Position numbers and translations under genes: made by a program | In this document: positions 4,051 through 53,820 of the stretch, in pieces | Layout of the letters: every line of letters begins with the position of its first letter | How positions within the stretch are numbered: the first letter of the stretch is position 1 | The notes under the pieces: model-generated | Database searches by the model: none | What the model saw: the letters and a program-made list of their open reading frames with translations, nothing else | What the model was told of the DNA's origin: nothing | DNA from: a virus | Taxonomy: Duplodnaviria; Caudoviricetes | IMG/VR virus record: IMGVR_UViG_3300028887_000079 | Span: 67,712-131,711 of that record | Reading direction: 5' to 3' (one strand) | Length of the DNA stretch: 64,000 nt

Positions 4051-5147
4051 TAACCTTCCACCGGCATCGGGGTCACAACATACTCTTCGCCGGTTGCCTG
4101 CTTGATGGCATCCGACACCGCCTTAGCGGTCGCCAACATGTCGGCATTGTGTTCGGCCCCTTCGACATGATTCAGGGACAACGGCATATTTGCGACCGCC
4201 ATATACGGCGTCTTATGAATGGAAACTTCGCCGCCAATTCCAACCACGGCGGATTCAATCAAAACACGCGCTTCCGGCGTGATTTCTTCAACGGCGCCGG
4301 CATAAGGCGCCGTGATTGCAAACGGGGCGTAATCATGCGGTTTTGCGGCAGTAAGCGCCACTGTAGGCTCGGCAGGCACCTCAACGGTTTCGCCAGTAGT
4401 TGCCGTATGCGTTTTTGTGACCGCATAGCCGAATTGGTCCAGCGATGAGATCGGGAAGCCCTTCGGATCATAAAGGTCAATGACCAATTTCTCGACCGGA
4501 TAAACACGCGACCACGCAAATTCGGACACGTAGTTCATATAGATGGTCGCGGACCAAGCATACGCAAAAAGGTTGCCCTCTTTGAAGTTGACAAGATCCG
4601 CCTCGCCCAAATTTTGAATGTAGGTGAAGTTGATGATCTTGTCCTTGACATACTCGGAGTTGTAAATGTATTGCAAGGAACTGACCTGCGTTACATTCCC
4701 GGCCGCGTCCTTCTTAGGCGTGGTCAGCGGCATATTGTAGGTGTTTTGGAAAACAGCCGCAAAGGCTTCTTCCAAGTCTTCTACCGCTTCGGCCTTGTTC
4801 GATACGAAGGCGCATGCAATCTTGAACGATGCGGAAACCGTTGATTTGCCGGACGGGCGGTTCTCCGGATCCTCATGAGTATCAAGCAGGCGATAACGCT
4901 GGCGCACAATCGGCTCAAGCGAAGTGCGCGTCCAAAATAAGCACATGAACGGCTTGGAACGGACATCTTCTTTAGTTGTCATTCCTTTGCGGTCCATTTT
5001 CTTCTCGGCCAATTCGTCCGAAAGCCACGCTTCATTTTTCGCGTTCTCGGAATCATAAATGACCTTCATAGAGTCATCAAAACCCTGTTCCTTGAACAAG
5101 GCTCGAATCTTGGTCAAATATGCTTGAACGGCAACAGAGGTTATCAT
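4050..5147 (-). CDS. hypothetical, possible neck/tail-completion structural protein
   Basis: 365 aa, translationally coupled downstream of the portal; function inferred from context only. Confidence 0.45.
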   Translation of the reverse strand: MITSVAVQAYLTKIRALFKEQGFDDSMKVIYDSENAKNEAWLSDELAEKKMDRKGMTTKEDVRSKPFMCLFWTRTSLEPIVRQRYRLLDTHEDPENRPSGKSTVSASFKIACAFVSNKAEAVEDLEEAFAAVFQNTYNMPLTTPKKDAAGNVTQVSSLQYIYNSEYVKDKIINFTYIQNLGEADLVNFKEGNLFAYAWSATIYMNYVSEFAWSRVYPVEKLVIDLYDPKGFPISSLDQFGYAVTKTHTATTGETVEVPAEPTVALTAAKPHDYAPFAITAPYAGAVEEITPEARVLIESAVVGIGGEVSIHKTPYMAVANMPLSLNHVEGAEHNADMLATAKAVSDAIKQATGEEYVVTPMPVEG

Positions 5148-12380: not shown

Positions 12381-12454
12381 AACCCGTTACCGGACTTGAA
12401 CCAGTGACTTCCCGGGAGTGACCACCCGAGCTCTACCAACTGAGCTAAACGCAC
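12381..12454 (-). tRNA. degenerate tRNA, 8-nt anticodon loop TGGTCACT
   Basis: Canonical D arm AGCTCAGTTGGTAGAGC and T loop TTCAAGT; weak acceptor stem. Confidence 0.55.
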
Positions 12455-12689
12455 AAAGGCTCCGACAGCATTTCAAACTTGCGGTGTGCCCTAGCCCGGT
12501 GGGCGATGCGTTCCTCGTAAGGACGGAGCATCTGAGCATCACCAAACACAATATACAAAATGTTCGTCCGCTTCTACTTATTACCCCCAGCCCTTTCGGC
12601 CGCCAGGGACAAACATAAGGTCCGATCCCGAATCGTTTGCGCATGATGCCCAAGCCTAGGACGAGGCACGCACGCCTTCTTTTATGTAG

Positions 12690-12764
12690 GGGCAGGAGCC
12701 GGACTCGAACCGACAACCTCAGGGCCGAAACACCCTGCGCTCTCCCAGTTAGAGCTATCCTGCC
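12690..12764 (-). tRNA. tRNA with non-canonical 8-nt anticodon loop TGTTTCGG
   Basis: Perfect acceptor GGCAGGA/TCCTGCC, intact D and T arms, anticodon stem CAGGG/CCCTG. Confidence 0.75.
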
Positions 12765-14022: not shown

Positions 14023-14645
14023 TCGGGTTCGGGAACAGCGTTATCCTAGCTTCCGGAGCGCGTCAACGCCCAGTTCCCTGACAGCGGGTTGTTCAATCCC
14101 TATTCTCTGTTGCTGCTACAACATCATCCGACTGCGCTGCCGGCGCGAGGCTGATACGCTCAGGCTCTTAGGCGACACATTCTTACGCTCCAGTGTCTTG
14201 CCCTCTCGGGCGCAACTGGCAACTACGCATCCGCATTTCATTTTTTTGCCGGTCGAGGCGGTGTGCGAGACGGACCGGTGAGATCTTTCCCTGAACTCGG
14301 GGCGATTCTCAAATTCGCTCTTCCGCTGGAGGTCTTTAATTATACCAGCTCTTTTTACGGCTTGCATTCCGCTGCCGCACCCGATTTAGAATTGCGTAGG
14401 ATCTGCAGCGCCCGCGCAACTCACGGAAGAAAAACTTTGCCGTTGCCTTCGCGTGTAACGATTGCCACCCGGCGAATCTATTATACGCTCTACCCCGTGC
14501 TGAAGGGCGGTGTCGCCGACAACGGCGAGAAATTAAAAGCGCATACCCGCGGTCCACCTATATCCGCCAGTATTTAGCCGTCCCGGACACGGCGGGGCAC
14601 AGTGGTTCCAAGAATGACTTGTCTCCCACACGTATGCGCCATTCG

Positions 14646-14998
14646 TGGAGGTGGCGGGAGTCGAACCCGCGTCCAAAAATACTTACGCGCTTGCTACTAC
14701 ACGCTTTTTCCTTGCATTTGCTCTCGCCTTGCCACGCCCAAAAGGAAACGGCGATGCTTCGGCCTACAGCGACAGATTTCGGATATGCGCCTCGCTGTCA
14801 AGCTTCTATCCTAGCCCGATTTGCGACTCGGACTCCATCCCTACGGGCGGCGAGGTGGGTCCAAGGGTTGCCCTAAATTAGGCAGCCTGTGCTACAGGTG
14901 CAGCATTTATTTTTTACAGACTTTTTTACGAGTGCCCACGTCTGTGACCTCGGCGTGCAACTTGCGTATCGGTATCCCTGTCGAAACCAGGCACCCCC
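14646..14998 (-). ncRNA. ssrA: tmRNA, tag (A)AAPVAQAA
   Basis: 5' GGGGGTGCCTGGTTTCGAC; 3' GGACGCGGGTTCGACTCCCGCCACCTCCA; G3:U70; tag ORF 14904-14878 follows ATAAAT. Confidence 0.95.
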
Positions 14999-15004
14999 GA
15001 TAGT

Positions 15005-15217
15005 TTAAGCCTGAGCCGGAGCTTCAGCCGTTTCGGTCTTTTCAGCCTTGGCGCCCTTTTCGGCAGCCTTGGCGGCCTTTTCGGCAGCGCGTTCAGCCTT
15101 GCGCTGTTCACGGAGCGGGGTCAGTTCGGCGAGAACGGCGGCGGTGTCCTTTCCGGCCTTCTTGAGGGTGGAAGCCTTGTGGGCGAGTTTGCGAATCTTC
15201 AACTGTAATTCGGTCAT
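15005..15217 (-). CDS. small basic Ala/Lys-rich protein upstream of tmRNA
   Basis: Strong AAGGAG RBS; 70 aa. Confidence 0.75.
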   Translation of the reverse strand: MTELQLKIRKLAHKASTLKKAGKDTAAVLAELTPLREQRKAERAAEKAAKAAEKGAKAEKTETAEAPAQA

Positions 15218-21395: not shown

Positions 21396-21941
21396 ATGAG
21401 CGAGCTGACCGTTTACAGAGATCCCAAAGAAGGACCCGCATACCGCGAGTTCTATGAAAAGACTGAAGTGGACAAAATCCTTGCCGAAAAGGATGCCAAA
21501 ATAGCAGGCTTTGAGAATGCGCTCCATTGGGACAACAGCGAAGCGCTGATCAATGCGGTCGAGAAAACCAAAAGCCTTGAAGAGGAATTGGCGAAGGCAC
21601 GAGACGAAATCAAATCCCTGAAGGCAGAACTCTTTGACAAAACCAAAGTGCAGGTGTTCAGCGTGGTGGACCAACGCATTGACGAACTCAAGGCCGAGCT
21701 AAAGAAAAAGGGCGCCGCAAACCTTCGTCTTGAATGTGAAAAGCGGGATCTGTGGTTGAGATTCGTCCAGCTCCGCCGGGCGCTGTGCCGCCTTCGCATC
21801 GGCTTCGCCCTGCACTTCGGCAGGGTCAATTCAGGAAAGAAGATTATCGACTACTGGAAGCACCGCTGCAAAACGGCGCCCTACTGGGACAGCAAAACTT
21901 ACAATGACATTCCACAAACACCGGTGGAAAAGGAAATTTAG
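21396..21941 (+). CDS. coiled-coil hypothetical protein
   Basis: GAGG RBS; heptad pattern. Confidence 0.7.
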   Translation: MSELTVYRDPKEGPAYREFYEKTEVDKILAEKDAKIAGFENALHWDNSEALINAVEKTKSLEEELAKARDEIKSLKAELFDKTKVQVFSVVDQRIDELKAELKKKGAANLRLECEKRDLWLRFVQLRRALCRLRIGFALHFGRVNSGKKIIDYWKHRCKTAPYWDSKTYNDIPQTPVEKEI

Positions 21942-21942
21942 T

Positions 21943-22425
21943 ATGGACATCGGAAGCAACGGTAAGTGGCCCGGTTGCGCATTGAGCAACTTCGCTGCAC
22001 ACGAATTTGAAATTGACGGCGTGAAATGCGCATCTATGGAAGGATTCCTCCAGTCGCTCAAGCACAAGAATCCGGACATGCAACGCGAGATTTGCAGCTA
22101 TGTCGGGATCAAGGCGAAGCGTGCCGGCGGAACTCATTGGATGCGGCATCAAAAACTCTACTGGAAAGGCGTAGCGTATGTGCGCACATCGCAGGCGTAT
22201 CAGGACCTGCTTGATCGCGCATACGATGCCCTCTACCAAAACGAAGGGTTCAAAGCTGCCCTTGCGGCAACCGGAAACGCCGAACTCCGGCACAGCGTTG
22301 GAAAACATAAGCAGGGTGAAACCTGCTTGACTACCCAAGAATTTTGCCACCGCCTTAATAAACTCCGTGAACGCCTCAAGCGCGAAACGGAGGAGGCGCT
22401 TGGTATTAAGAAGTTCAAACTTTAA
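21943..22425 (+). CDS. NADAR family protein (T4 gp30.3-like)
   Basis: MDIGS..WP..ALSNF..H.FEIDGV.CASMEGFLQSLK motif. Confidence 0.85.
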   Translation: MDIGSNGKWPGCALSNFAAHEFEIDGVKCASMEGFLQSLKHKNPDMQREICSYVGIKAKRAGGTHWMRHQKLYWKGVAYVRTSQAYQDLLDRAYDALYQNEGFKAALAATGNAELRHSVGKHKQGETCLTTQEFCHRLNKLRERLKRETEEALGIKKFKL

Positions 22426-22437
22426 GGAGTAATTGAA

Positions 22438-22926
22438 ATGGACGAATTGCGCACACTGCTTACCGCCAAGGGATTCAAAGTCACGGCGGATGACACATTC
22501 ACCAAACTGGAATCGCGCTGCGGCCCGGACTCCAGCACTTCCCGTATGGCAGAATACATCAATGATTGCCGTAACGCCAAGGGATTCAAGGACTACAAGA
22601 TTGTGCCCAACGGCAACGGATTTCTCATTGCCACCGACTACGATTACGGCGCTGAAATCGAAAAGTTGGACGAATATGCAAATGCCGCCATCAAGGCGGA
22701 TATTGAAGGCAACTACGCGAACATCCATTTCGATCCGGGGTCTTTCGAGGTCGTGGTTGTAGACGGGAAGCTGGCATTCAAATATGTGATGCTTTACAAT
22801 TCAATGATGTGTGGGTTCGGCGCAAAATCGGAGCATACGGATGAACGCCCGGAACTCGAACGCCGTATCATTGAGTATGCTATGAAGATTCTCCCTGAGG
22901 AGATCCAACCGAAAAAGGCAGGTTAA
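22438..22926 (+). CDS. hypothetical protein
   Basis: AAGGAG RBS. Confidence 0.7.
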   Translation: MDELRTLLTAKGFKVTADDTFTKLESRCGPDSSTSRMAEYINDCRNAKGFKDYKIVPNGNGFLIATDYDYGAEIEKLDEYANAAIKADIEGNYANIHFDPGSFEVVVVDGKLAFKYVMLYNSMMCGFGAKSEHTDERPELERRIIEYAMKILPEEIQPKKAG

Positions 22927-22927
22927 A

Positions 22928-23197
22928 ATGATTACGCGAAGTGAACTCGCCGCCGCAATGCTGAAAAGCAAAAAGCTCACGCTCGGCACCACCGAAAAAT
23001 TCTATGACCGGGAAACCCAATGCGCCTACTGCGGCGACAAGGGCCAAGTGATTTTCGATCAGGACAATCAGGAACTGGAACGCTATGAAAACGATTTCTG
23101 CGTTGCGGTTCTTCCGGTTGATTCGGTTGAAAGCGCCATTGCTGCGTTGGAAGCGTATGCGGATACCGGAGAACTTCCGGATGAAGAATTCGTGTAG
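22928..23197 (+). CDS. hypothetical protein (CxxC)
   Basis: Operon packing. Confidence 0.65.
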   Translation: MITRSELAAAMLKSKKLTLGTTEKFYDRETQCAYCGDKGQVIFDQDNQELERYENDFCVAVLPVDSVESAIAALEAYADTGELPDEEFV

Positions 23198-23206
23198 GAG
23201 CAGCCA

Positions 23207-23476
23207 ATGGCGTTGGACCACCAAGAAATTTTCGCGATAGCGCATATGCTACAAACCGCCAAGGGCCAAATTCCCTCGGATGAATTTGCCCAAGGGTTTC
23301 TTCAAGGCATTCACTATATGGAGGTTCTCCACGAAATCCGCGTGATGGAAACACCGGATCCGCCCAAACACTCTCCAGCGGCCGAAGCCCTGATGCGAAC
23401 GAAGGTCGGACCGGTTGCCCCGGAAAAGAAGAGCCCGATCGGACCTCCGCCACCTCCACCTATGGATGGTCTATGA
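23207..23476 (+). CDS. hypothetical protein
   Basis: AGGAG RBS. Confidence 0.65.
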   Translation: MALDHQEIFAIAHMLQTAKGQIPSDEFAQGFLQGIHYMEVLHEIRVMETPDPPKHSPAAEALMRTKVGPVAPEKKSPIGPPPPPPMDGL

Positions 23477-23622
23477 AATTGATATGGCTCATTATCGGAT
23501 ATTTCTTTTGGACGCTCGGATGGTTTATCCAGTTAATTGGCGACTGGTGCAATTCGTGGCTCGATTGGATTGAAGAATGGTTGGACTATTGCGAAGACCA
23601 TATCAACAAGGATGACCGATGA
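23473..23622 (+). CDS. small Trp-rich membrane protein
   Basis: MKLIWLIIGYFFW...; ATGA overlaps at both ends. Confidence 0.55.
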   Translation: MKLIWLIIGYFFWTLGWFIQLIGDWCNSWLDWIEEWLDYCEDHINKDDR

Positions 23623-23747
23623 AAATCTTTCGCTGTGGCAAATGCCATAAACATTTCCCCGCCGAATACAAGGTGAACAAATGGACTGTTGGCTGGTGTC
23701 CGGAATGCAAGGTCATCCGCAGAATTTACTTCGAGCGTGAAGATTAG
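23619..23747 (+). CDS. 42-aa zinc-ribbon protein
   Basis: CGKC...CPEC. Confidence 0.6.
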   Translation: MKIFRCGKCHKHFPAEYKVNKWTVGWCPECKVIRRIYFERED

Positions 23748-23796
23748 CGTGCCATCGCGAATTGATGTTCGTATATTATTCAACAAAGGAAATCAC

Positions 23797-23880
23797 ATGA
23801 AGCAGTATTTCGCAAATAATTTCAACTATGAAGCCGAGGCCAGTTCCGAAGCTTCAATTTTGCGTATACTGCAGCGGTGA
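23797..23880 (+). CDS. putative attenuator leader peptide MKQYFANNFNYEAEASSEASILRILQR
   Basis: AAAGGA RBS; own promoter (TATATT 23772-77); codons match the downstream tRNAs. Confidence 0.8.
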   Translation: MKQYFANNFNYEAEASSEASILRILQR

Positions 23881-23937
23881 TAAAACTCCAAGAGAAGTGT
23901 GAAGAGAAGTCCGCTGCGCAAGCAGCGGATTTTTTTT
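23870..23937 (+). promoter_or_regulatory. mutually exclusive antiterminator / intrinsic terminator (attenuator)
   Basis: Terminator TCCGCTGC-GCAA-GCAGCGGA-T8 (23910-37); TGCAGCGG (23870-77) can alternatively pair with CCGCTGCG (23911-18). Confidence 0.8.
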
Positions 23938-23951
23938 ATGCTTTTCAATTC

Positions 23952-24023
23952 GGCACTATAGGCAAGCGGTTACGCCTCCTGAATTTCACTCAGGCGACTG
24001 CGGTTCGACTCCGCATAGTGCTA
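23952..24023 (+). tRNA. tRNA-Glu(TTC)
   Basis: Cloverleaf; CCTGA-ATTTCAC-TCAGG. Confidence 0.9.
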
Positions 24024-24028
24024 CTATT

Positions 24029-24101
24029 GGGACGTTAGCTCAGTTGGTAGAGCACCTGTTTTGCAAGCAGGGGGTCAAGGGTTCGAGCCCCTTACGCTCC
24101 A
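24029..24101 (+). tRNA. tRNA-Ala(TGC)
   Basis: Cloverleaf; G3:U70. Confidence 0.92.
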
Positions 24102-24106
24102 CGAAC

Positions 24107-24188
24107 GGATAGGTATGCAAGTGGTAAAGCAGGCTGACTGTAAATCAGCTCCCTTCGGGGTTCGCGGGTTCAAATCCTACCCTATCCA
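24107..24188 (+). tRNA. tRNA-Tyr(GTA)
   Basis: GCTGA-CTGTAAA-TCAGC; long variable arm. Confidence 0.92.
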
Positions 24189-24196
24189 CTAAACAT

Positions 24197-24268
24197 TGGA
24201 TTGTAGCTCAATGGTAGAGCGGTGCGCCGTTAACGCAAGGGTTGCAGGTTCGAGTCCTGCCTTTCCAG
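24197..24268 (+). tRNA. tRNA-Asn(GTT)
   Basis: Loop CCGTTAA (C33). Confidence 0.85.
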
Positions 24269-24272
24269 CTAT

Positions 24273-24354
24273 GGAAGCGTCCCACAACTGGTGGTGGAGC
24301 GGTCTTGAAAACCGCCGGCCGTAAGGTTTGGGGGTTCGAATCCCTCCGCTTCCG
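24273..24354 (+). tRNA. tRNA-Ser(TGA)
   Basis: GCGGT-CTTGAAA-ACCGC; variable arm. Confidence 0.9.
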
Positions 24355-24360
24355 CTACAT

Positions 24361-24447
24361 AGAGGCGTGGCCGAGTGGTCTAAGGCAGCACTTTGCTAAA
24401 GTGCCGTAGTGAAATACCTACCGCTGGTCCGAATCCAGCCGCCTCTG
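24361..24447 (+). tRNA. tRNA-Ser(GCT)
   Basis: GCACT-TTGCTAA-AGTGC; variable arm. Confidence 0.9.
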
Positions 24448-24450
24448 TCC

Positions 24451-24482
24451 ACGGCGCCACAAGATAGGTTGGCGCCGTTTTT
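24451..24482 (+). terminator. terminator closing the tRNA operon
   Basis: ACGGCGCCA...TGGCGCCGT followed by a T-tract. Confidence 0.75.
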
Positions 24483-24524
24483 ATGTCCGTGTCGGCAGGC
24501 GCCCAACAAAGGTATATTTCCAGT

Positions 24525-25037
24525 ATGCCGCATAGTTTCAATGTCATTACAAAGCACGCCGACTTCAAGGAGTATATCGCCCTCAAACACCTGGTCCAAA
24601 TCCAGGGCTACGTTACGGACGTCTACCTCCCTATTGATGACGCATATGACCCCGCGACAAGAACCGGATCCATCTACAATTCGAAGGACCACGAATATCG
24701 GTATGCGGACAAACCGGACTTCCAAGCCCGCATAGCATACACCGACCCGCAATCCGATATGTTCGATCACGGCGATGTGCAGGAGGTGAACTACACCAAC
24801 ATTGCCTACACGCTCAAGCGCACACCGCCTGCAACCGGCGGTCCCGGCCAATACACGCCAAAGCAGGCAGACAAATTCTGCCCCGGCGAAATCAAGCAGT
24901 TCTCCAAATTGTATGTCAACTACGGCGGAATGGATCTTTCGTATTTCGTGCGCGAGATTACAGTTTTGCGCAACCCCAATTCAAAAAATGTTGACGCCGA
25001 GGCGCTCATCCGCCTTGAACTGGTCATCCACGTTTAA
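24525..25037 (+). CDS. hypothetical, possible head-completion protein
   Basis: TATATT 6 nt upstream of the ATG; function is a guess. Confidence 0.55.
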   Translation: MPHSFNVITKHADFKEYIALKHLVQIQGYVTDVYLPIDDAYDPATRTGSIYNSKDHEYRYADKPDFQARIAYTDPQSDMFDHGDVQEVNYTNIAYTLKRTPPATGGPGQYTPKQADKFCPGEIKQFSKLYVNYGGMDLSYFVREITVLRNPNSKNVDAEALIRLELVIHV

Positions 25038-25142
25038 TTAGGCGATTTATGCGCCGGAAACGCGCATATAAGGCTGTTAAATACAAAAGGCGCCCATTTA
25101 CATGGGTGCCTTCTTTTATCGCCTTAAAAGCGCTGTATTGCG

Positions 25143-25604: not shown

Positions 25605-25614
25605 GCGGTCTCCT

Positions 25615-26928
25615 TTAAGTATCGCGCTCGGCGCCGTGAACTACCTTCAAGGTCGGGAAGCGCAGGGAGGTGTTGCCATCCGCGTTTGTCGTTTCCTCGA
25701 AATACTTAACTGTAATGACCTTGCCGACAATGAGCTTCGGATCATTCATCCAAGCGATGCGCTGTTCGCGGGAAAGCCCGGCGCCAACGCCAACGCGGGT
25801 GCCCTTATGCGTAATGAGCAGGCGCGTCACGCCTTCAAATGTCACATTGCCTTGACCGGGAAGGGCGGTGGTCATCGACCCGCACTCAACGCCCTCAACG
25901 GTGTATTCGGCATCAAAGAACTTCTTGACCTTCAAAAGATCCTTGGTGCGCCCGGACTGGTAGTAGGTGTTCTTGCGAAGCATGAAGCCTTCCCAGTTGC
26001 CTTCGGACACGTAGCCGGACCAACGATCGAAGTCGTCCTGGCTGCGGAGGAGTTCCTGCTTGAGCGGCTTGACATAGCAGCGGTCATGCGGGAGAGCGGC
26101 ATATTCCATCGCCAGCTCGGCAAGGCGCTTGAAGCGGACGGACAAGATTTCTTTGGACTTGCCTTCACAGAATTCATCGTAAGTGAGGATGTCGAAAACC
26201 TGATAGCAGCAATCTTCAATCATGTAGTCCTTGCGGCGAATTTCCTTCATCATCGACTGGAAGTCTTCATCGCCGTTGGCGTCCACCTTGCAAAGTTCGC
26301 CATCGAGAACCCACTTGCCGGAAAGCGGAGCGCAGAAGCGGCTTACGCCGGGCTTGAGATTTTCGAGGGTGGTGAACTCCTTGTTTTGGCGGGAACGGAA
26401 TTCAACCGTGCCTTCATCCAAGTCCACGATCGCCACGCAACGAACGCCATCACACTTGCGGCTTGCGAAGTAGGTGCCGTTGACCGGATTCACGCCCTTG
26501 ACTTTTTCGAGATGCTGGGCGAGCGCCACTTCAAACTTTTCGGAGATGCCCAAAACTTCGGCACGCCAAGTCTTCCAGCTAATGCCCATCTTGAGATCGC
26601 GGTCAAGAACCTGCTTGAGAAGTTCCTGCACCGGGGCATCCTGATACGAAAGGTATTCGGAAATTTCAGTGATGGCCGCATTTCCGGTAAGGGTGCGGGC
26701 AGCAAGGCGTTCGAGAATAGGACGGAAGCCGTCATACCAACCGGAGAACAAATGGTCCGAATGCCTCGGGCCGGCAACGATGTCCTTCGAGGTTACACCA
26801 TAGGTGATGCTCGGATCCATTGCATCGGCAACGATTTGGTCGATGAGTGCGCTGTGGTGTTCTTTTGCGTAGGCAACCTTCGCAGCGGTGCCGGGGATGG
26901 AGCGGATTGTTTCAAAGAAATCAGTCAT
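25615..26928 (-). CDS. ATP-dependent DNA ligase
   Basis: KCDG (KxDG), LDGEL, EGFMLR, LLKVKK and SLRFP motifs. Confidence 0.96.
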   Translation of the reverse strand: MTDFFETIRSIPGTAAKVAYAKEHHSALIDQIVADAMDPSITYGVTSKDIVAGPRHSDHLFSGWYDGFRPILERLAARTLTGNAAITEISEYLSYQDAPVQELLKQVLDRDLKMGISWKTWRAEVLGISEKFEVALAQHLEKVKGVNPVNGTYFASRKCDGVRCVAIVDLDEGTVEFRSRQNKEFTTLENLKPGVSRFCAPLSGKWVLDGELCKVDANGDEDFQSMMKEIRRKDYMIEDCCYQVFDILTYDEFCEGKSKEILSVRFKRLAELAMEYAALPHDRCYVKPLKQELLRSQDDFDRWSGYVSEGNWEGFMLRKNTYYQSGRTKDLLKVKKFFDAEYTVEGVECGSMTTALPGQGNVTFEGVTRLLITHKGTRVGVGAGLSREQRIAWMNDPKLIVGKVITVKYFEETTNADGNTSLRFPTLKVVHGAERDT

Positions 26929-26930
26929 TG

Positions 26931-27083
26931 TTAAACCTCCTTCACTTCAAGGATTTCGTGCTCACACTGATCGAGCCCATACAGTTTTTTGCATTCTTCT
27001 ACGGAGCGGACAACACATTCCTGCTCACGGAATTTGCCATCGCGGCAAAGTTCATCGCGGTATTTGAAGCGAACATGAACCAT
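26931..27083 (-). CDS. 50-aa hypothetical protein
   Basis: MVHVRFKYRD...; coupled to the upstream gene. Confidence 0.6.
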   Translation of the reverse strand: MVHVRFKYRDELCRDGKFREQECVVRSVEECKKLYGLDQCEHEILEVKEV

Positions 27084-50946: not shown

Positions 50947-53820
50947 CTACCCGTAGGTGAATGTAACCTTCGCGATGTCCACGGTTCTGCCTTGGCAGTA
51001 TTCCTCAATATCCGCCGCAGTGAGCGTGTATTTGCCAAGCGTAAGACCGAAGGCGCCAATCACGGTTCCGTCCGCGTCCTTCATGTATGCGGAACTCGGG
51101 AAGCAGTTTTGGAAGACAAGCGTATCGCCGTCCCAAACATAGGCGAGTTCTTCGCCGCCGTGAATCTCGGTGGTGATCTTCGCCAGCACGGACTTGAGTG
51201 TATCCACACTCCCTTCAAAGGGGTAGATGTCCATTCCAACAACCTCGGCGCGATCCCATCCGACAAATGCTTCCGTTTCGGACAACTGCCACGTTTCCTC
51301 TTCTTCGGAATCATTCAGCACATACATCCAGCGCAAGCCCAGTGCGGTGTCAATGTAAAGTCCTTTCGGGCGGTAGAGCGCCGTAACTCCGACATAGCCG
51401 TTGGCAAGCATCAAATCGCTTTCGTCCGTAACCTCCGGATCCGTGACGTTGCGGAAGTGGTCCGTTGAAGTGGACTCCTTCAATCCAAGAAGTCCGAAGG
51501 TGTGGGTGGACTGCCAATAGCGAATAAATGTGTTGTTTTCCAAATCGATAGCGCGAATGCGGAGCGGATACTGGACGCGGTCAAATTCATAAATCTTGGT
51601 TCCGCGTTCCTCATTGACGCGCGTAGGCACCAGCTCGGCCCACTCATCCGTTTCCGGATCAGCAAGGACAAATACCCCGGTCTCAATGTCCACATAATTG
51701 TGGAGCGCCCTGCTGAAGTAGCGGGTCGGGAACAACTCAATAACGTTCTTGCCGCCGGAGCGCTGCCCATCGAGAACGCTTGAGAAGATCGCCGTTTCCA
51801 TTTCGATTTTGGATTCGTCATACAAATTCATGTGGAGGCGGACCCAAACATAGATAGGAATTTCATAGGCGATAACATCGGCGACCAGCGCCGAATACGA
51901 ACCAGCCCACGCAGAAGCCTTCACCCAAGTCTTGCCATCGCCAAGATCCTTGACGGCATCCTCGGCGAGGCGGGCAAGCACGTTAAGATCCGCATCGTAG
52001 TAGCGATTGTTGAAATTCTGTGTAGGCTCAATTTCTGCGAAGCGATAGCGCGTGACCCATTCGCCGTCCGTGTATTGCTGAATGGAGCAACCGGACTTAT
52101 CTTCAGGATCATAGCGCAGGGCGCCTTCTTCCGCCTTGCCTTCGGAACCGAGCGGCTCAAGCGTTGAAATGTTGGCGACCAGCTTGCGGAGATTTTCGTG
52201 CTGCTCGTAAATGTCCTTGACCTCTTTTTCCTCATCATCGGTTTCCGACTGGCAATAGTATGCAATCGAAGGTTCCGAGAGGGAAAGGTTTTCAACATCA
52301 AGGCCGACCGCACGCATACACATGCGCAAGCCATCATAAGTGTTGCGGGTGCGCACCAGCAAGGCAAACAGCAATGCGGACCACTTGGCGCCGCATTCAT
52401 CCATAATGGATTGCGGGATGCCGACCATATGCGCATACGCCTTGCACATCTCTTCCGACACGCTCCACGTTTTTGCGATCACCGCGTTGGACGCATTGGT
52501 ATGCGGAATGACGTAGTATTCGGAGAGGAGCGGGGAATTGTCCATCTGCATGTGGTTGTAGATTTCTTCCCACGCCGGATTGAGATAATGTCCCGGCGGA
52601 TAAATCAAGGTCGATTCATCCTGAATGTCCGTATGCTTGCGCATGAACAACCGGGTGGCGTTCTCATTCACATATGAGACAATATCATCGGAATTGTAGT
52701 CCGCATAATTCTTTTTGTCGTAGTGGCCGCGATATGTGCCGAGCGAAGTGGTATGCGCGATGTCCACCCAAAACGGATAGCCTTGGCTGTCCACCGTAAC
52801 CCAAATATGTTCGATCGCGCCTTTGCGAATAGGCAGGCGCCCGCGGGGAAGAACGAATGTGTCTTCTTCCAATGCGGCAAAGCGATAGAGGTAGCCCTGG
52901 CGCCAATAGCGCGTATCATTCAGGGAAGTGCCCTCAGGCGCATTGACAATACACACATAGGAGTTTTTGCCCTGACGGCGCACGGTTCCAACGGTATAGC
53001 TGCCGGGCGTGCGCTTATGGGTTTCAATATCCATATGAGTTATTTCGCCCTGAACATCGGGGTAGACCGGCTCCTGTAATTGGAGCATACGCTGTTGATA
53101 AACAACCACGGAGCCTTGCGGGAGTTTCAAGCCGGTGATGAAGATCGTGGAATCGCTTTTTGCCTTCACGGTTTTGCCGGCGCCCCACGCCTGAATGCCC
53201 GCATACTTTGAAAGGTTGTTTGCCCTGATGGAAGGATGTTGGTTCGCCTGCATGAATCCGTAAAGGGGTTCGCCCGCGGCGTGGAGTGCTTCCATAAACT
53301 GCGGTTCCATCACGAGGCGGTTAAGCGTCTTGATGATGTAGCTATCTCGAACCCAGCCCGCGGCGGCCTTACGGAGAAGCGGGCGCTGCTGAATGGAAAC
53401 ATGCGCCTGCCAAAAGATTGAGGACATGCGCTTGTTGAGATTGATGCGGTAGTCAAGGCGGAACAACCCCGGCACTTCCGTATTGGGCCGGTTGGCTGCT
53501 ACCTTAGAAGAAATGTTGACGCGCCTGCCTGCCACTTCAAGGTAGACAAGCGGAATGTCCGGAATGAAATCGGAGAATTGGTCGATCAGGACCACTTCGG
53601 GCGGCACCTGCTCGATCTTCACATACATCGGATTGTCTTCCGGTTCGGGGCCTGGCGGATCCGGCGGAACAACTACATCCGCCGAAATAAATTGCCTCCA
53701 GTAGTTTGCATACAAGTCCGCATCCTTAACCTTCAACACGGCGGAGTCGCGCGTTTTCGAAACCACCACATATTCATGCGGCTCATACGATTGATTAAGG
53801 CGTTCATTAAGACTAGTCAT
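50947..53820 (-). CDS. large baseplate/tail structural protein
   Basis: 957 aa; CBM5/12-like aromatic repeats; baseplate operon context. Confidence 0.6.
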   Translation of the reverse strand: MTSLNERLNQSYEPHEYVVVSKTRDSAVLKVKDADLYANYWRQFISADVVVPPDPPGPEPEDNPMYVKIEQVPPEVVLIDQFSDFIPDIPLVYLEVAGRRVNISSKVAANRPNTEVPGLFRLDYRINLNKRMSSIFWQAHVSIQQRPLLRKAAAGWVRDSYIIKTLNRLVMEPQFMEALHAAGEPLYGFMQANQHPSIRANNLSKYAGIQAWGAGKTVKAKSDSTIFITGLKLPQGSVVVYQQRMLQLQEPVYPDVQGEITHMDIETHKRTPGSYTVGTVRRQGKNSYVCIVNAPEGTSLNDTRYWRQGYLYRFAALEEDTFVLPRGRLPIRKGAIEHIWVTVDSQGYPFWVDIAHTTSLGTYRGHYDKKNYADYNSDDIVSYVNENATRLFMRKHTDIQDESTLIYPPGHYLNPAWEEIYNHMQMDNSPLLSEYYVIPHTNASNAVIAKTWSVSEEMCKAYAHMVGIPQSIMDECGAKWSALLFALLVRTRNTYDGLRMCMRAVGLDVENLSLSEPSIAYYCQSETDDEEKEVKDIYEQHENLRKLVANISTLEPLGSEGKAEEGALRYDPEDKSGCSIQQYTDGEWVTRYRFAEIEPTQNFNNRYYDADLNVLARLAEDAVKDLGDGKTWVKASAWAGSYSALVADVIAYEIPIYVWVRLHMNLYDESKIEMETAIFSSVLDGQRSGGKNVIELFPTRYFSRALHNYVDIETGVFVLADPETDEWAELVPTRVNEERGTKIYEFDRVQYPLRIRAIDLENNTFIRYWQSTHTFGLLGLKESTSTDHFRNVTDPEVTDESDLMLANGYVGVTALYRPKGLYIDTALGLRWMYVLNDSEEEETWQLSETEAFVGWDRAEVVGMDIYPFEGSVDTLKSVLAKITTEIHGGEELAYVWDGDTLVFQNCFPSSAYMKDADGTVIGAFGLTLGKYTLTAADIEEYCQGRTVDIAKVTFTYG

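Follow-up and report, generated by a model that had tools for sequence, protein, structure and literature searches.

A putative leader-peptide attenuator in front of a phage tRNA array, with leader codons that match the tRNAs encoded downstream

We report here on a compact tRNA operon in the genome of a phage that is uncultured and comes from the gut or rumen. The DNA analysed, referred to as the window, is a stretch of 64,000 nucleotides (nt) corresponding to positions 67,712-131,711 of the 131.7-kb IMG/VR virus record IMGVR_UViG_3300028887_000079. In this window, a promoter, a leader open reading frame (ORF) of 27 codons, an intrinsic terminator in the position of an attenuator, six tRNA genes and a closing terminator form a cassette which we consider, with a probability of about 0.8, to be a self-contained operon under ribosome-mediated transcription attenuation. 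The phage tRNAs are probably made only when their codons are read slowly. An earlier note, based on the letters of the window, had interpreted the locus as a leader-peptide attenuator, and the core of this interpretation is now supported by comparative evidence, namely the conservation of the cassette in other phages, the covariation of its helices and the match between leader codons and tRNAs.

The reason why phages carry tRNA genes and the way in which these genes are controlled have been debated for decades, codon compensation and escape from defences being the main proposals. Phage tRNAs are linked to escape from tRNA-cleaving defences in two recent publications (PMC10264068, PMC11555353). 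In the literature searched, we found neither a description of a codon-matched leader ORF with an attenuator before phage tRNA clusters nor one of a leader-peptide attenuator before tRNA genes, whether phage or cellular; as far as we found, such a regulatory logic for tRNA genes is apparently undescribed in any organism.

Results

Organization of the leader and of the tRNA array

The components of the cassette are listed in Table 1; it measures approximately 190 nt if counted from the -35 box through the T-run of the terminator. The positions and counts that the earlier note had given for the promoter, the ribosome-binding site (RBS), the ORF, the terminator, the tRNAs, the 15 of 17 codons and the antiterminator strand all match the sequence. 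Transcription likely starts near 23784-85, with a 5' untranslated region (UTR) of approximately 12 nt, and a short ORF with an RBS and a start codon is indeed found near the promoter (AAAGGA, 6 nt, ATG, 27 codons). The 27 codons read MKQYFANNFNYEAEASSEASILRILQR.

The RNA of the leader folds far better than shuffled sequences (z = -6.1). Three pairings would compete in it, which we number as in classical attenuators: the RBS, the start codon and codons 2-7 with the end of the leader (1:2), the antiterminator (2:3) and the terminator hairpin (3:4). The AAAGGA motif doubles as the 5' strand of the outer helix, its partner being UCC at 23887-89. Region 2 has a second possible partner, since through 23870-77 it can also pair with the 5' arm of the terminator: TGCAGCGG, which adjoins the stop codon, pairs with CCGCTGCG of this arm by seven Watson-Crick pairs and one G-U pair. 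The attenuator hairpin itself consists of TCCGCTGC-GCAA-GCAGCGGA followed by T8, and an A/G-rich tract from about 23892 could lengthen its stem by pairing with the U-run.

An intrinsic terminator is thus found between the leader ORF and the tRNAs, with no promoter between them as judged from the sequence alone. The distance from the T-run to tRNA-Glu is 14 nt (10-25 nt between terminator and first tRNA in the relatives described below), which leaves no room for a separate promoter. We considered such a promoter within 23938-51 and rejected it: the only candidate is TATGCT, which has no -35 box and no TG extension, and the U-rich tracts of the relatives yield similar hexamers by chance. The six tRNAs of the array were all called by ARAGORN (6/6), with Rfam scores of 50-64 bits. 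The standard tRNAs of the whole 131.7-kb record are these six and one tRNA-Met.

Table 1. Features of the tRNA operon, with positions in the window
Feature	Positions	Strand	Basis
Sigma-70-type promoter: GTGCCA (23749-54), 17-nt spacer, TATATT (23772-77)	23749..23777	+	Consensus scan, 9/12 matches
Shine-Dalgarno sequence AAAGGA, 6 nt 5' of ATG	23785..23790	+	Sequence, fold, consensus structure
Leader ORF, 27 codons + TGA (ATG 23797, TGA 23878-80)	23797..23880	+	ORF translation, conservation
Control zone, codons 4-20: Y F A N N F N Y E A E A S S E A S	23806..23856	+	Genome-wide composition scan
Region 1, putative anti-antiterminator 5' strand (Shine-Dalgarno, start codon, codons 2-7)	23788..23816	+	Minimum-energy fold, RNAalifold
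Region 2 (codons 22-27, stop, next 9 nt)	23860..23889	+	Folds, covariation
Putative antiterminator strand (partner 23911-23918)	23870..23877	+	Covariation, nascent-RNA fold
Intrinsic terminator (attenuator): 8-bp G+C stem, GCAA loop, T8	23910..23937	+	Sequence, covariation
tRNA-Glu (TTC)	23952..24024	+	ARAGORN, Rfam
tRNA-Ala (TGC)	24029..24102	+	ARAGORN, Rfam
tRNA-Tyr (GTA)	24107..24189	+	ARAGORN, Rfam
tRNA-Asn (GTT)	24197..24269	+	ARAGORN, Rfam
tRNA-Ser (TGA)	24273..24355	+	ARAGORN, Rfam
tRNA-Ser (GCT)	24360..24451	+	ARAGORN, Rfam
Operon-closing terminator-like hairpin ACGGCGCC...GGCGCCGU, then UUUUUAU	24451..24484	+	-16.4 kcal/mol, z = -2.4

The cassette is conserved in other phages

The first relatives, two contigs of approximately 130 kb, were reached via the ORF of 184 amino acids (aa) located downstream of the array. 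Later ones were recovered with a codon-level leader pattern in IMG/VR, in JGI metagenome contigs and in one contig binned as Clostridia, and a scan with a promoter/UTR pattern added one more (L046; relatives are designated by L numbers). The leader pattern fixed the peptide A-N-N-F-x-x-E-A-x-A-x-x-E-A; it placed no constraint on the tRNA arrays or on codons 2-5, 10-11, 16-17 and 20-27. Beyond L046, the promoter/UTR scan for sister cassettes with different leaders gave chance hits without a nearby tRNA, a blastn search of the region against the phage GenBank collection gave tRNA-level matches only and no relative of the leader, and a locus search by the upstream 162-aa ORF found no relatives.

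In total, we obtained 12 distinct relatives, that is 13 variants including the window, which fall into about three lineages. The window and L003 form the first one, L002, L022 and L019 the second, and the third, that of phages of approximately 215 kb, comprises L004, L005, L012/L024, L017, L020, L021, L029, L046 and L072. Their sources are phage contigs of approximately 130 and 215 kb, metagenome contigs and the Clostridia-binned contig.

All 12 relatives keep the same order of a sigma-70-type promoter, a Shine-Dalgarno sequence, a short ORF, an intrinsic terminator and tRNAs. The promoter hexamers and their exact 17-nt spacing are common to all relatives while the sequence of the spacer diverges; in the 215-kb phages the promoter is TTGACA-N17-TATATT. 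A GGA-type site is present 5' of the ATG in 11 of the 11 aligned variants. The leader has 27 codons in every relative except L046, which has 28 by an in-frame TTT insertion, and only the leader frame is open throughout, the two other frames carrying 1-3 stops in every variant. In addition, AUUUUGCGUAU is conserved as nucleotides, the frame in which it is read differs between the window and the 215-kb clade, and the two ORFs still end at 27 codons, which suggests that the RNA and the reading frame are both under constraint. The open frame, the insertion of a whole codon and the equal ORF length can indeed be taken as signs of a constraint on reading.

In L002, a phage of approximately 130 kb, the cassette has another location; its orientation with respect to the shared 184-aa gene is reversed, and it stands immediately 3' of another terminator. 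Being relocated, inverted and placed behind its own upstream terminator, it behaves as an autonomous unit. The same contig, which is also that of L008 1-600, has at 4205-4520 on the minus strand approximately 300 nt of G+C-rich, apparently structured, non-coding sequence which ends in its own terminator directly 5' of the cassette promoter; an Rfam search of the region upstream of the L008 cassette gave no match. As to L072, it is a 26.5-kb contig (JAFYKO010000134.1) assigned to a Clostridia bin from a water-buffalo cecum metagenome. This bin, together with the Shine-Dalgarno and TTGACA/TATATT signals, gives a weak hint that the hosts are perhaps Firmicutes.

Leader codons correspond to the tRNAs of the array

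The control zone of the window comprises Y2 F2 A4 N3 E3 S3, so that 15 of its 17 codons specify Tyr, Asn, Glu, Ala or Ser (Y/N/E/A/S). Stop-free segments of 17 codons were scored for these five amino acids in the six frames of the 131.7-kb genome (n = 161,795). We observed that the leader zone is the single richest of all, the best segment elsewhere reaching 14; at a proteome frequency of 0.289, the binomial probability of 15/17 is 6e-7. The composition of the leader is beyond chance. Its codons are thus enriched for the amino acids linked to the products of the operon, with Phe as the unmatched input in the window.

The array of the 215-kb phages consists of Phe, Glu, Ala, Asn, Tyr and Ser-GCT tRNAs. 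In L005, L020, L021, L029 and L046, the amino acids specified by codons 4-23 (4-24 in L046) are {N,Y,A,F,E,S} and no others, the very set of isotypes that the array encodes, {F,E,A,N,Y,S}; six random isotypes would match a given six-letter set with a chance of 1 in 38,760. Serine shows three states. Where the array has both Ser-TGA and Ser-GCT (the window and L003), the control zone has AGT and two TCN codons; where it has Ser-GCT alone (all 215-kb-type variants), the zone has AGT alone; and where no Ser tRNA exists genome-wide (L002 and L022), the zone has no Ser codon, codon 16 being AAT. Those TCN codons for which the phage encodes no cognate tRNA are confined to codons 24-27, positions at which a stalled ribosome would cover region 2.

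The 215-kb phages also have a tRNA-Leu(CAA) and a tRNA-Met outside the array, without a leader, and codons 4-23 of the L005 leader contain no Leu or Met codon; in the sister variant L017, the array of which breaks off after tRNA-Phe, there is a single Leu codon, codon 21. We found no leader ORF or attenuator before the tRNA-Leu and tRNA-Met genes of the 215-kb phages or before the transfer-messenger RNA (tmRNA) gene of the window. These lone tRNA genes, which offer a contrast within the same genomes, stand 25-45 nt 3' of protein genes (G001:C1:44713-44796 and 53544-53616; G002:C1:135731-135814, 139257-139332 and 144148-144222).

The agreement that the earlier note expected between leader codons and arrays in related phages was therefore found in the six-for-six set and in the three states of serine. 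It failed for Phe in the clade of the window, for Ala in L003 and in arrays broken by insertions, as detailed in the Discussion.

Three mutually exclusive helices covary

Pairs were counted column by column in an alignment of 11 variants (A1), with controls in which the partner strand was slid and with 500 shuffles, of which we give the number that attained the observed covariation score. RNAalifold on A1 gave two elements, the terminator and a helix enclosing the ORF, in which the RBS, the start codon and codons 2-7 face codons 20-27, the stop codon and the following bases. The terminator was paired in 97.9% of the cells (28-56% in slid controls), with five pairs changed on both sides and 0/500 shuffles. 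For the enclosing helix, the values were 89% (28-57% in slid controls), four pairs and 1/500. The antiterminator pairing, proposed previously from the window, is conserved in the relatives with compensatory changes: 79.1% of the cells were paired (25-66% in slid controls), four pairs had changed on both sides and 8/500 shuffles were counted. The comparative data thus support a terminator, an antiterminator and a 1:2 helix that would be mutually exclusive; the third of these, between the Shine-Dalgarno/start region and the end of the ORF, was absent from the earlier note and shows compensatory changes as well.

The compensations in the antiterminator include A-U to G-C, C-G to U-A and U-A to C-G. 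In L005, GCAGUGG of the leader stands opposite CCACUGC of the arm, and the terminator of this variant keeps only a G-U at that position; in L004, GCGGUG stands opposite CCACCGC. UUCGCAG opposite CUGCGAA in L021 and UCCGCAG opposite CUGCGGA in L029 involve partner bases that sit in the terminator loop, so the upkeep of the terminator cannot explain these compensations. A further compensation, listed here without assignment to the antiterminator, is GGAUAA with UUAUCC in L017, where the other variants have GGAAAA with UUUUCC. We also compared the energies of cognate and non-cognate leader/arm duplexes; this comparison was non-discriminating because all arms share G+C-rich CCGC/CUGC cores, and it was replaced by the column-wise counts.

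Folding of the nascent RNA and modelled effect of a stalled ribosome

For the nascent RNA running from codon 21 to the terminator loop, the minimum-energy fold is the antiterminator in 11 of the 11 variants, with -13 to -25 kcal/mol versus -11 to -20 kcal/mol for the terminator core. We then modelled the ribosome by blocking out its footprint on the leader and computed the equilibrium probability P of the 2:3 pairing. In this model, P(2:3) in the window is 0.01 without a ribosome, rises to 0.66-0.88 with a stall at codon 6, 10 or 20, and is 0.00 with a ribosome at codon 23 or at the stop codon. The matched codons end at the last stall position that would still allow antitermination. Covariation, nascent fold and masking model all point to an antiterminator that would exclude the terminator and be masked by a ribosome at the stop codon. 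A 1:2 pairing that would give termination without translation is likewise predicted, kinetic ordering being assumed, as three variants prefer 2:3.

Discussion

Proposed mechanism

In the mechanism that we propose, RNA polymerase would be coupled to a ribosome translating the leader. When Tyr, Asn, Glu, Ala and Ser codons (and Phe codons) are decoded rapidly, the first ribosome would reach the stop codon and cover region 2; the terminator would then form and the polymerase halt 14 nt before tRNA-Glu. If no ribosome is loaded, the 1:2 helix would form, again with termination. Slow decoding of any control codon would cause an upstream stall and leave region 2 free to pair with region 3 before region 4 is made, which would allow read-through into the tRNA genes. 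Since the product is tRNA and not a biosynthetic enzyme, this circuit would be a negative-feedback controller of supply: the phage tRNAs would be switched on when the pool reading their own codons is limiting, and off after its replenishment.

A more specific scenario, which we advance tentatively and consider rather unlikely, is that of a sentinel with six inputs, in which the cleavage or depletion of any of the host Phe, Glu, Ala, Asn, Tyr and Ser tRNAs would switch on the replacements within seconds. With the same reserve, the depletion might be due to anticodon nucleases, to other tRNA-targeting defences or to host shut-off induced by the phage, leader codons and array co-evolving with a changing threat, as the serine codons suggest. 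A trigger by anticodon nucleases such as PrrC, PARIS or PtuAB, which the earlier note had in mind, is a speculation that the sequence neither supports nor contradicts; it would be an attractive special case of a general feedback of decoding speed on phage tRNA supply.

Observations that weigh against attenuation by matched codons

Several observations do not fit this mechanism or limit the strength of the data in its favour. In the clade of the window, the leader has 2-3 Phe codons and no tRNA-Phe exists genome-wide; the two non-matching Phe codons of the window are probably a relic of an ancestral tRNA-Phe. L003 has lost tRNA-Ala and kept five Ala codons. In L004, L024, L019 and L072, inserted ORFs of approximately 830 bp replace or stand beside tRNA-Ala and tRNA-Asn, with unchanged leaders; these array-breaking insertions look like recent events. 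Several Ala codons are GCC, which is poorly read by a UGC anticodon unless U34 is suitably modified. The conservation of the A-N-N-F...E-A residues results by construction from the search pattern, and with only about three lineages of relatives the serine co-variation rests on about two independent events.

As regards the RNA, region 2 shuffled alone gave P of about 0.03-0.18 per sequence (0/300 in one variant), a modest significance that comes from the G+C-richness of the region. In several variants, a ribosome at codons 14-18 lets the 1:2 helix close around it in the equilibrium model; this closure is sterically doubtful, and a queued second ribosome would prevent it. In L004, L012 and L021, the model prefers 2:3 even without a ribosome, so that the switch would need kinetic, co-transcriptional ordering or ribosome queuing. 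Finally, the leader lies outside the coverage of the metatranscriptome contigs described below, which are uninformative on its transcription or termination.

The insertions deserve a description of their own. They are ORFs of approximately 265 aa, located at 406-1238 of the extended L004 sequence (in the orientation of the cassette), at 869-1663 of L024 and at 167-958 of L019 (minus strand); that of L072 sits between tRNA-Ala and tRNA-Asn. The ORF of L004/L024 passes the Pfam threshold for HNH endonucleases (22.1 versus 21.4 bits), and that of L019, which is unrelated to it, matches no family significantly. The insertions seem to have arisen independently and may resemble the traffic of homing endonucleases in tRNA clusters. 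Also between tRNA-Ala and tRNA-Asn, the spacer is 130-214 nt long in L046 (453-667 of the oriented cassette) and L021 (484-614), versus 5-10 nt elsewhere; tRNA-like fragments occur in the L046 spacer, which may harbour a structured RNA of a degenerate or unusual kind.

Alternative explanations

The same arrangement could arise from an ordinary small phage gene followed by a leaky operon terminator, with constitutive read-through into the tRNAs and a composition that matches them by coincidence or by a shared codon bias. On the strand of the leader, a series of small ORFs that overlap one another (21904-23747) does precede it, with no terminator in between, and both the Phe codons lacking a tRNA gene in the genome of the window and the arrays that retain the same leader after losing tRNA genes would be expected of such a gene. 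However, neither the exact six-for-six set of the 215-kb phages and the genome-wide top rank in the window nor the co-variation of serine codons and tRNAs would be expected from it, and the C-terminus of the peptide varies (ILRILQR, FACSVRC, FAYALQW, FAYSQSW) while the pairing of the RNA with the terminator arm is kept through compensations. As the cassette moreover brings along a conserved promoter of its own and is relocated as a whole, we find this explanation improbable. Even less credit can be given to a structured 5' leader acting independently of translation, whether an element for processing or stability of the tRNA precursor, a switch bound by protein or RNA, or a small RNA released by the terminator. 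In this case the ORF would be unread, and nothing would lead an untranslated RNA to encode, in frame, the amino acids that the tRNAs downstream carry. The strong and conserved secondary structure, the conservation of parts of the ORF as nucleotides and not as amino acids (AUUUUGCGUAU in two frames) and the burial of the RBS by the 1:2 helix in the finished RNA speak for it; against it stand the RBS at correct spacing, the ATG and the frame of 27 or 28 codons in all variants with the other frames closed, a sole insertion that is a whole codon, third-position changes (GCA/GCT, AAT/AAC, TTC/TTT) that preserve A-N-N-F, and the lack of a match to T-box or other Rfam families.

The cassette could also be a true attenuator that senses something other than tRNA abundance, such as amino-acid starvation through uncharged tRNA or the overall rate of translation in the infected cell, the tRNA operon being merely timed by it. 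Extra tRNA does not relieve amino-acid starvation, which would make the match between input and output pointless, and a sensor of general speed needs no composition that tracks the array, yet the serine codons track it. The mechanism itself cannot distinguish a missing from an uncharged tRNA, classical attenuators sense charging, and Phe codons without a tRNA-Phe gene are an input without an output; on balance, we judge this alternative to have little chance of being correct, and we retain attenuation by slow reading of codons that match the array.

Comparison with known systems

The leaders of ilvGMEDA and ilvBN (Ile/Leu/Val), thr (Thr/Ile), trpL, hisL and pheL resemble the cassette in having a short, promoter-proximal, translated leader, and the multivalent ilv and thr leaders are, like it, enriched in control codons for several amino acids. 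The enterobacterial attenuators also share the 1:2/2:3/3:4 alternatives, a terminator just 5' of the regulated genes and a decision taken by the position of the ribosome. Unlike in these leaders, the genes that would be regulated here are tRNAs and not biosynthetic enzymes, there would be six inputs, the loop that separates regions 1 and 2 contains the control codons, which are not within region 1, and the 1:2 helix also buries the RBS. The cassette has no sequence similarity to these leaders. A search with the Rfam leader families (His, Trp, Thr, Leu, Phe and others) gave Thr_leader as the best match, with 18.3 bits versus a threshold of 55 and E = 1.1; this match covers the terminator alone, and by sequence the leader belongs to none of the curated Rfam leader families. 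The pheM leader of E. coli pheST is closer in its output, an aminoacyl-tRNA synthetase being attenuated there by the reading of its own codons; it has, unlike the cassette, a single input (Phe), a synthetase as product and a cellular location.

T-box riboswitches of Firmicutes, probably a host group similar to that of the phages studied here, also tie a competition between terminator and antiterminator to the status of tRNA. In contrast to the cassette, a T-box recognizes a single uncharged tRNA by direct binding and functions without a ribosome, and the cassette has neither a specifier loop nor a T-box motif in its leader of only about 150 nt, which carries an ORF; the Rfam covariance model of the T-box gave no hit on the cassette even at E <= 10. 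With the tRNA clusters of T4 and T5, the cassette shares tandem tRNA genes in one precursor, an upstream promoter and a large phage of lytic type.

Significance

An attenuator with test codons that mirror the tRNAs under its control would give the phage a built-in feedback on tRNA supply. Its leader would state which codons the phage considers at risk, and this opens the role of phage tRNAs to experimental tests. The family is suited to experiments: it is compact, has host-type signals and offers natural variants in the form of serine gains and losses, compensatory stems and insert-broken arrays. Synthetic sensors of decoding capacity could be built on this principle.

Genomic surroundings

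The genes next to the cassette encode a gp30.3-like protein, several small proteins of unknown function and, on the opposite strand, an ATP-dependent DNA ligase; the genes around the cassette look like early phage genes. Small parts of a 6-kb stretch are present in four metatranscriptome libraries from animal guts, all belonging to one study. Their RNA contigs align at approximately 95-97% identity with the 184-aa ORF and with the gene for the DNA ligase (24529-25043 and 25612-27000 of the window); besides these two genes, the contigs contain tRNA-Ala-like pieces of other organisms. A close relative of the window phage is present in these RNA libraries, with DNA carry-over being possible.

The tmRNA gene of the window (14645-14998) is preceded by an Ala/Lys/Glu-rich ORF of approximately 70 aa with a good ribosome-binding site (15004-15216, minus strand), which ends about 5 nt before it. 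As no terminator separates the two, the tmRNA is probably co-transcribed with the ORF. The arrangement is not an attenuator. In addition, the genome of the window phage and its relative L003 have tRNA-like genes in which the anticodon loop has 8 nt or is abnormal in another way, and to which ARAGORN could assign no anticodon. They are located outside the gated array, at G004:C1:67554-67627, 68044-68116 and 86689-86765 and at 12381-12764 of the window.

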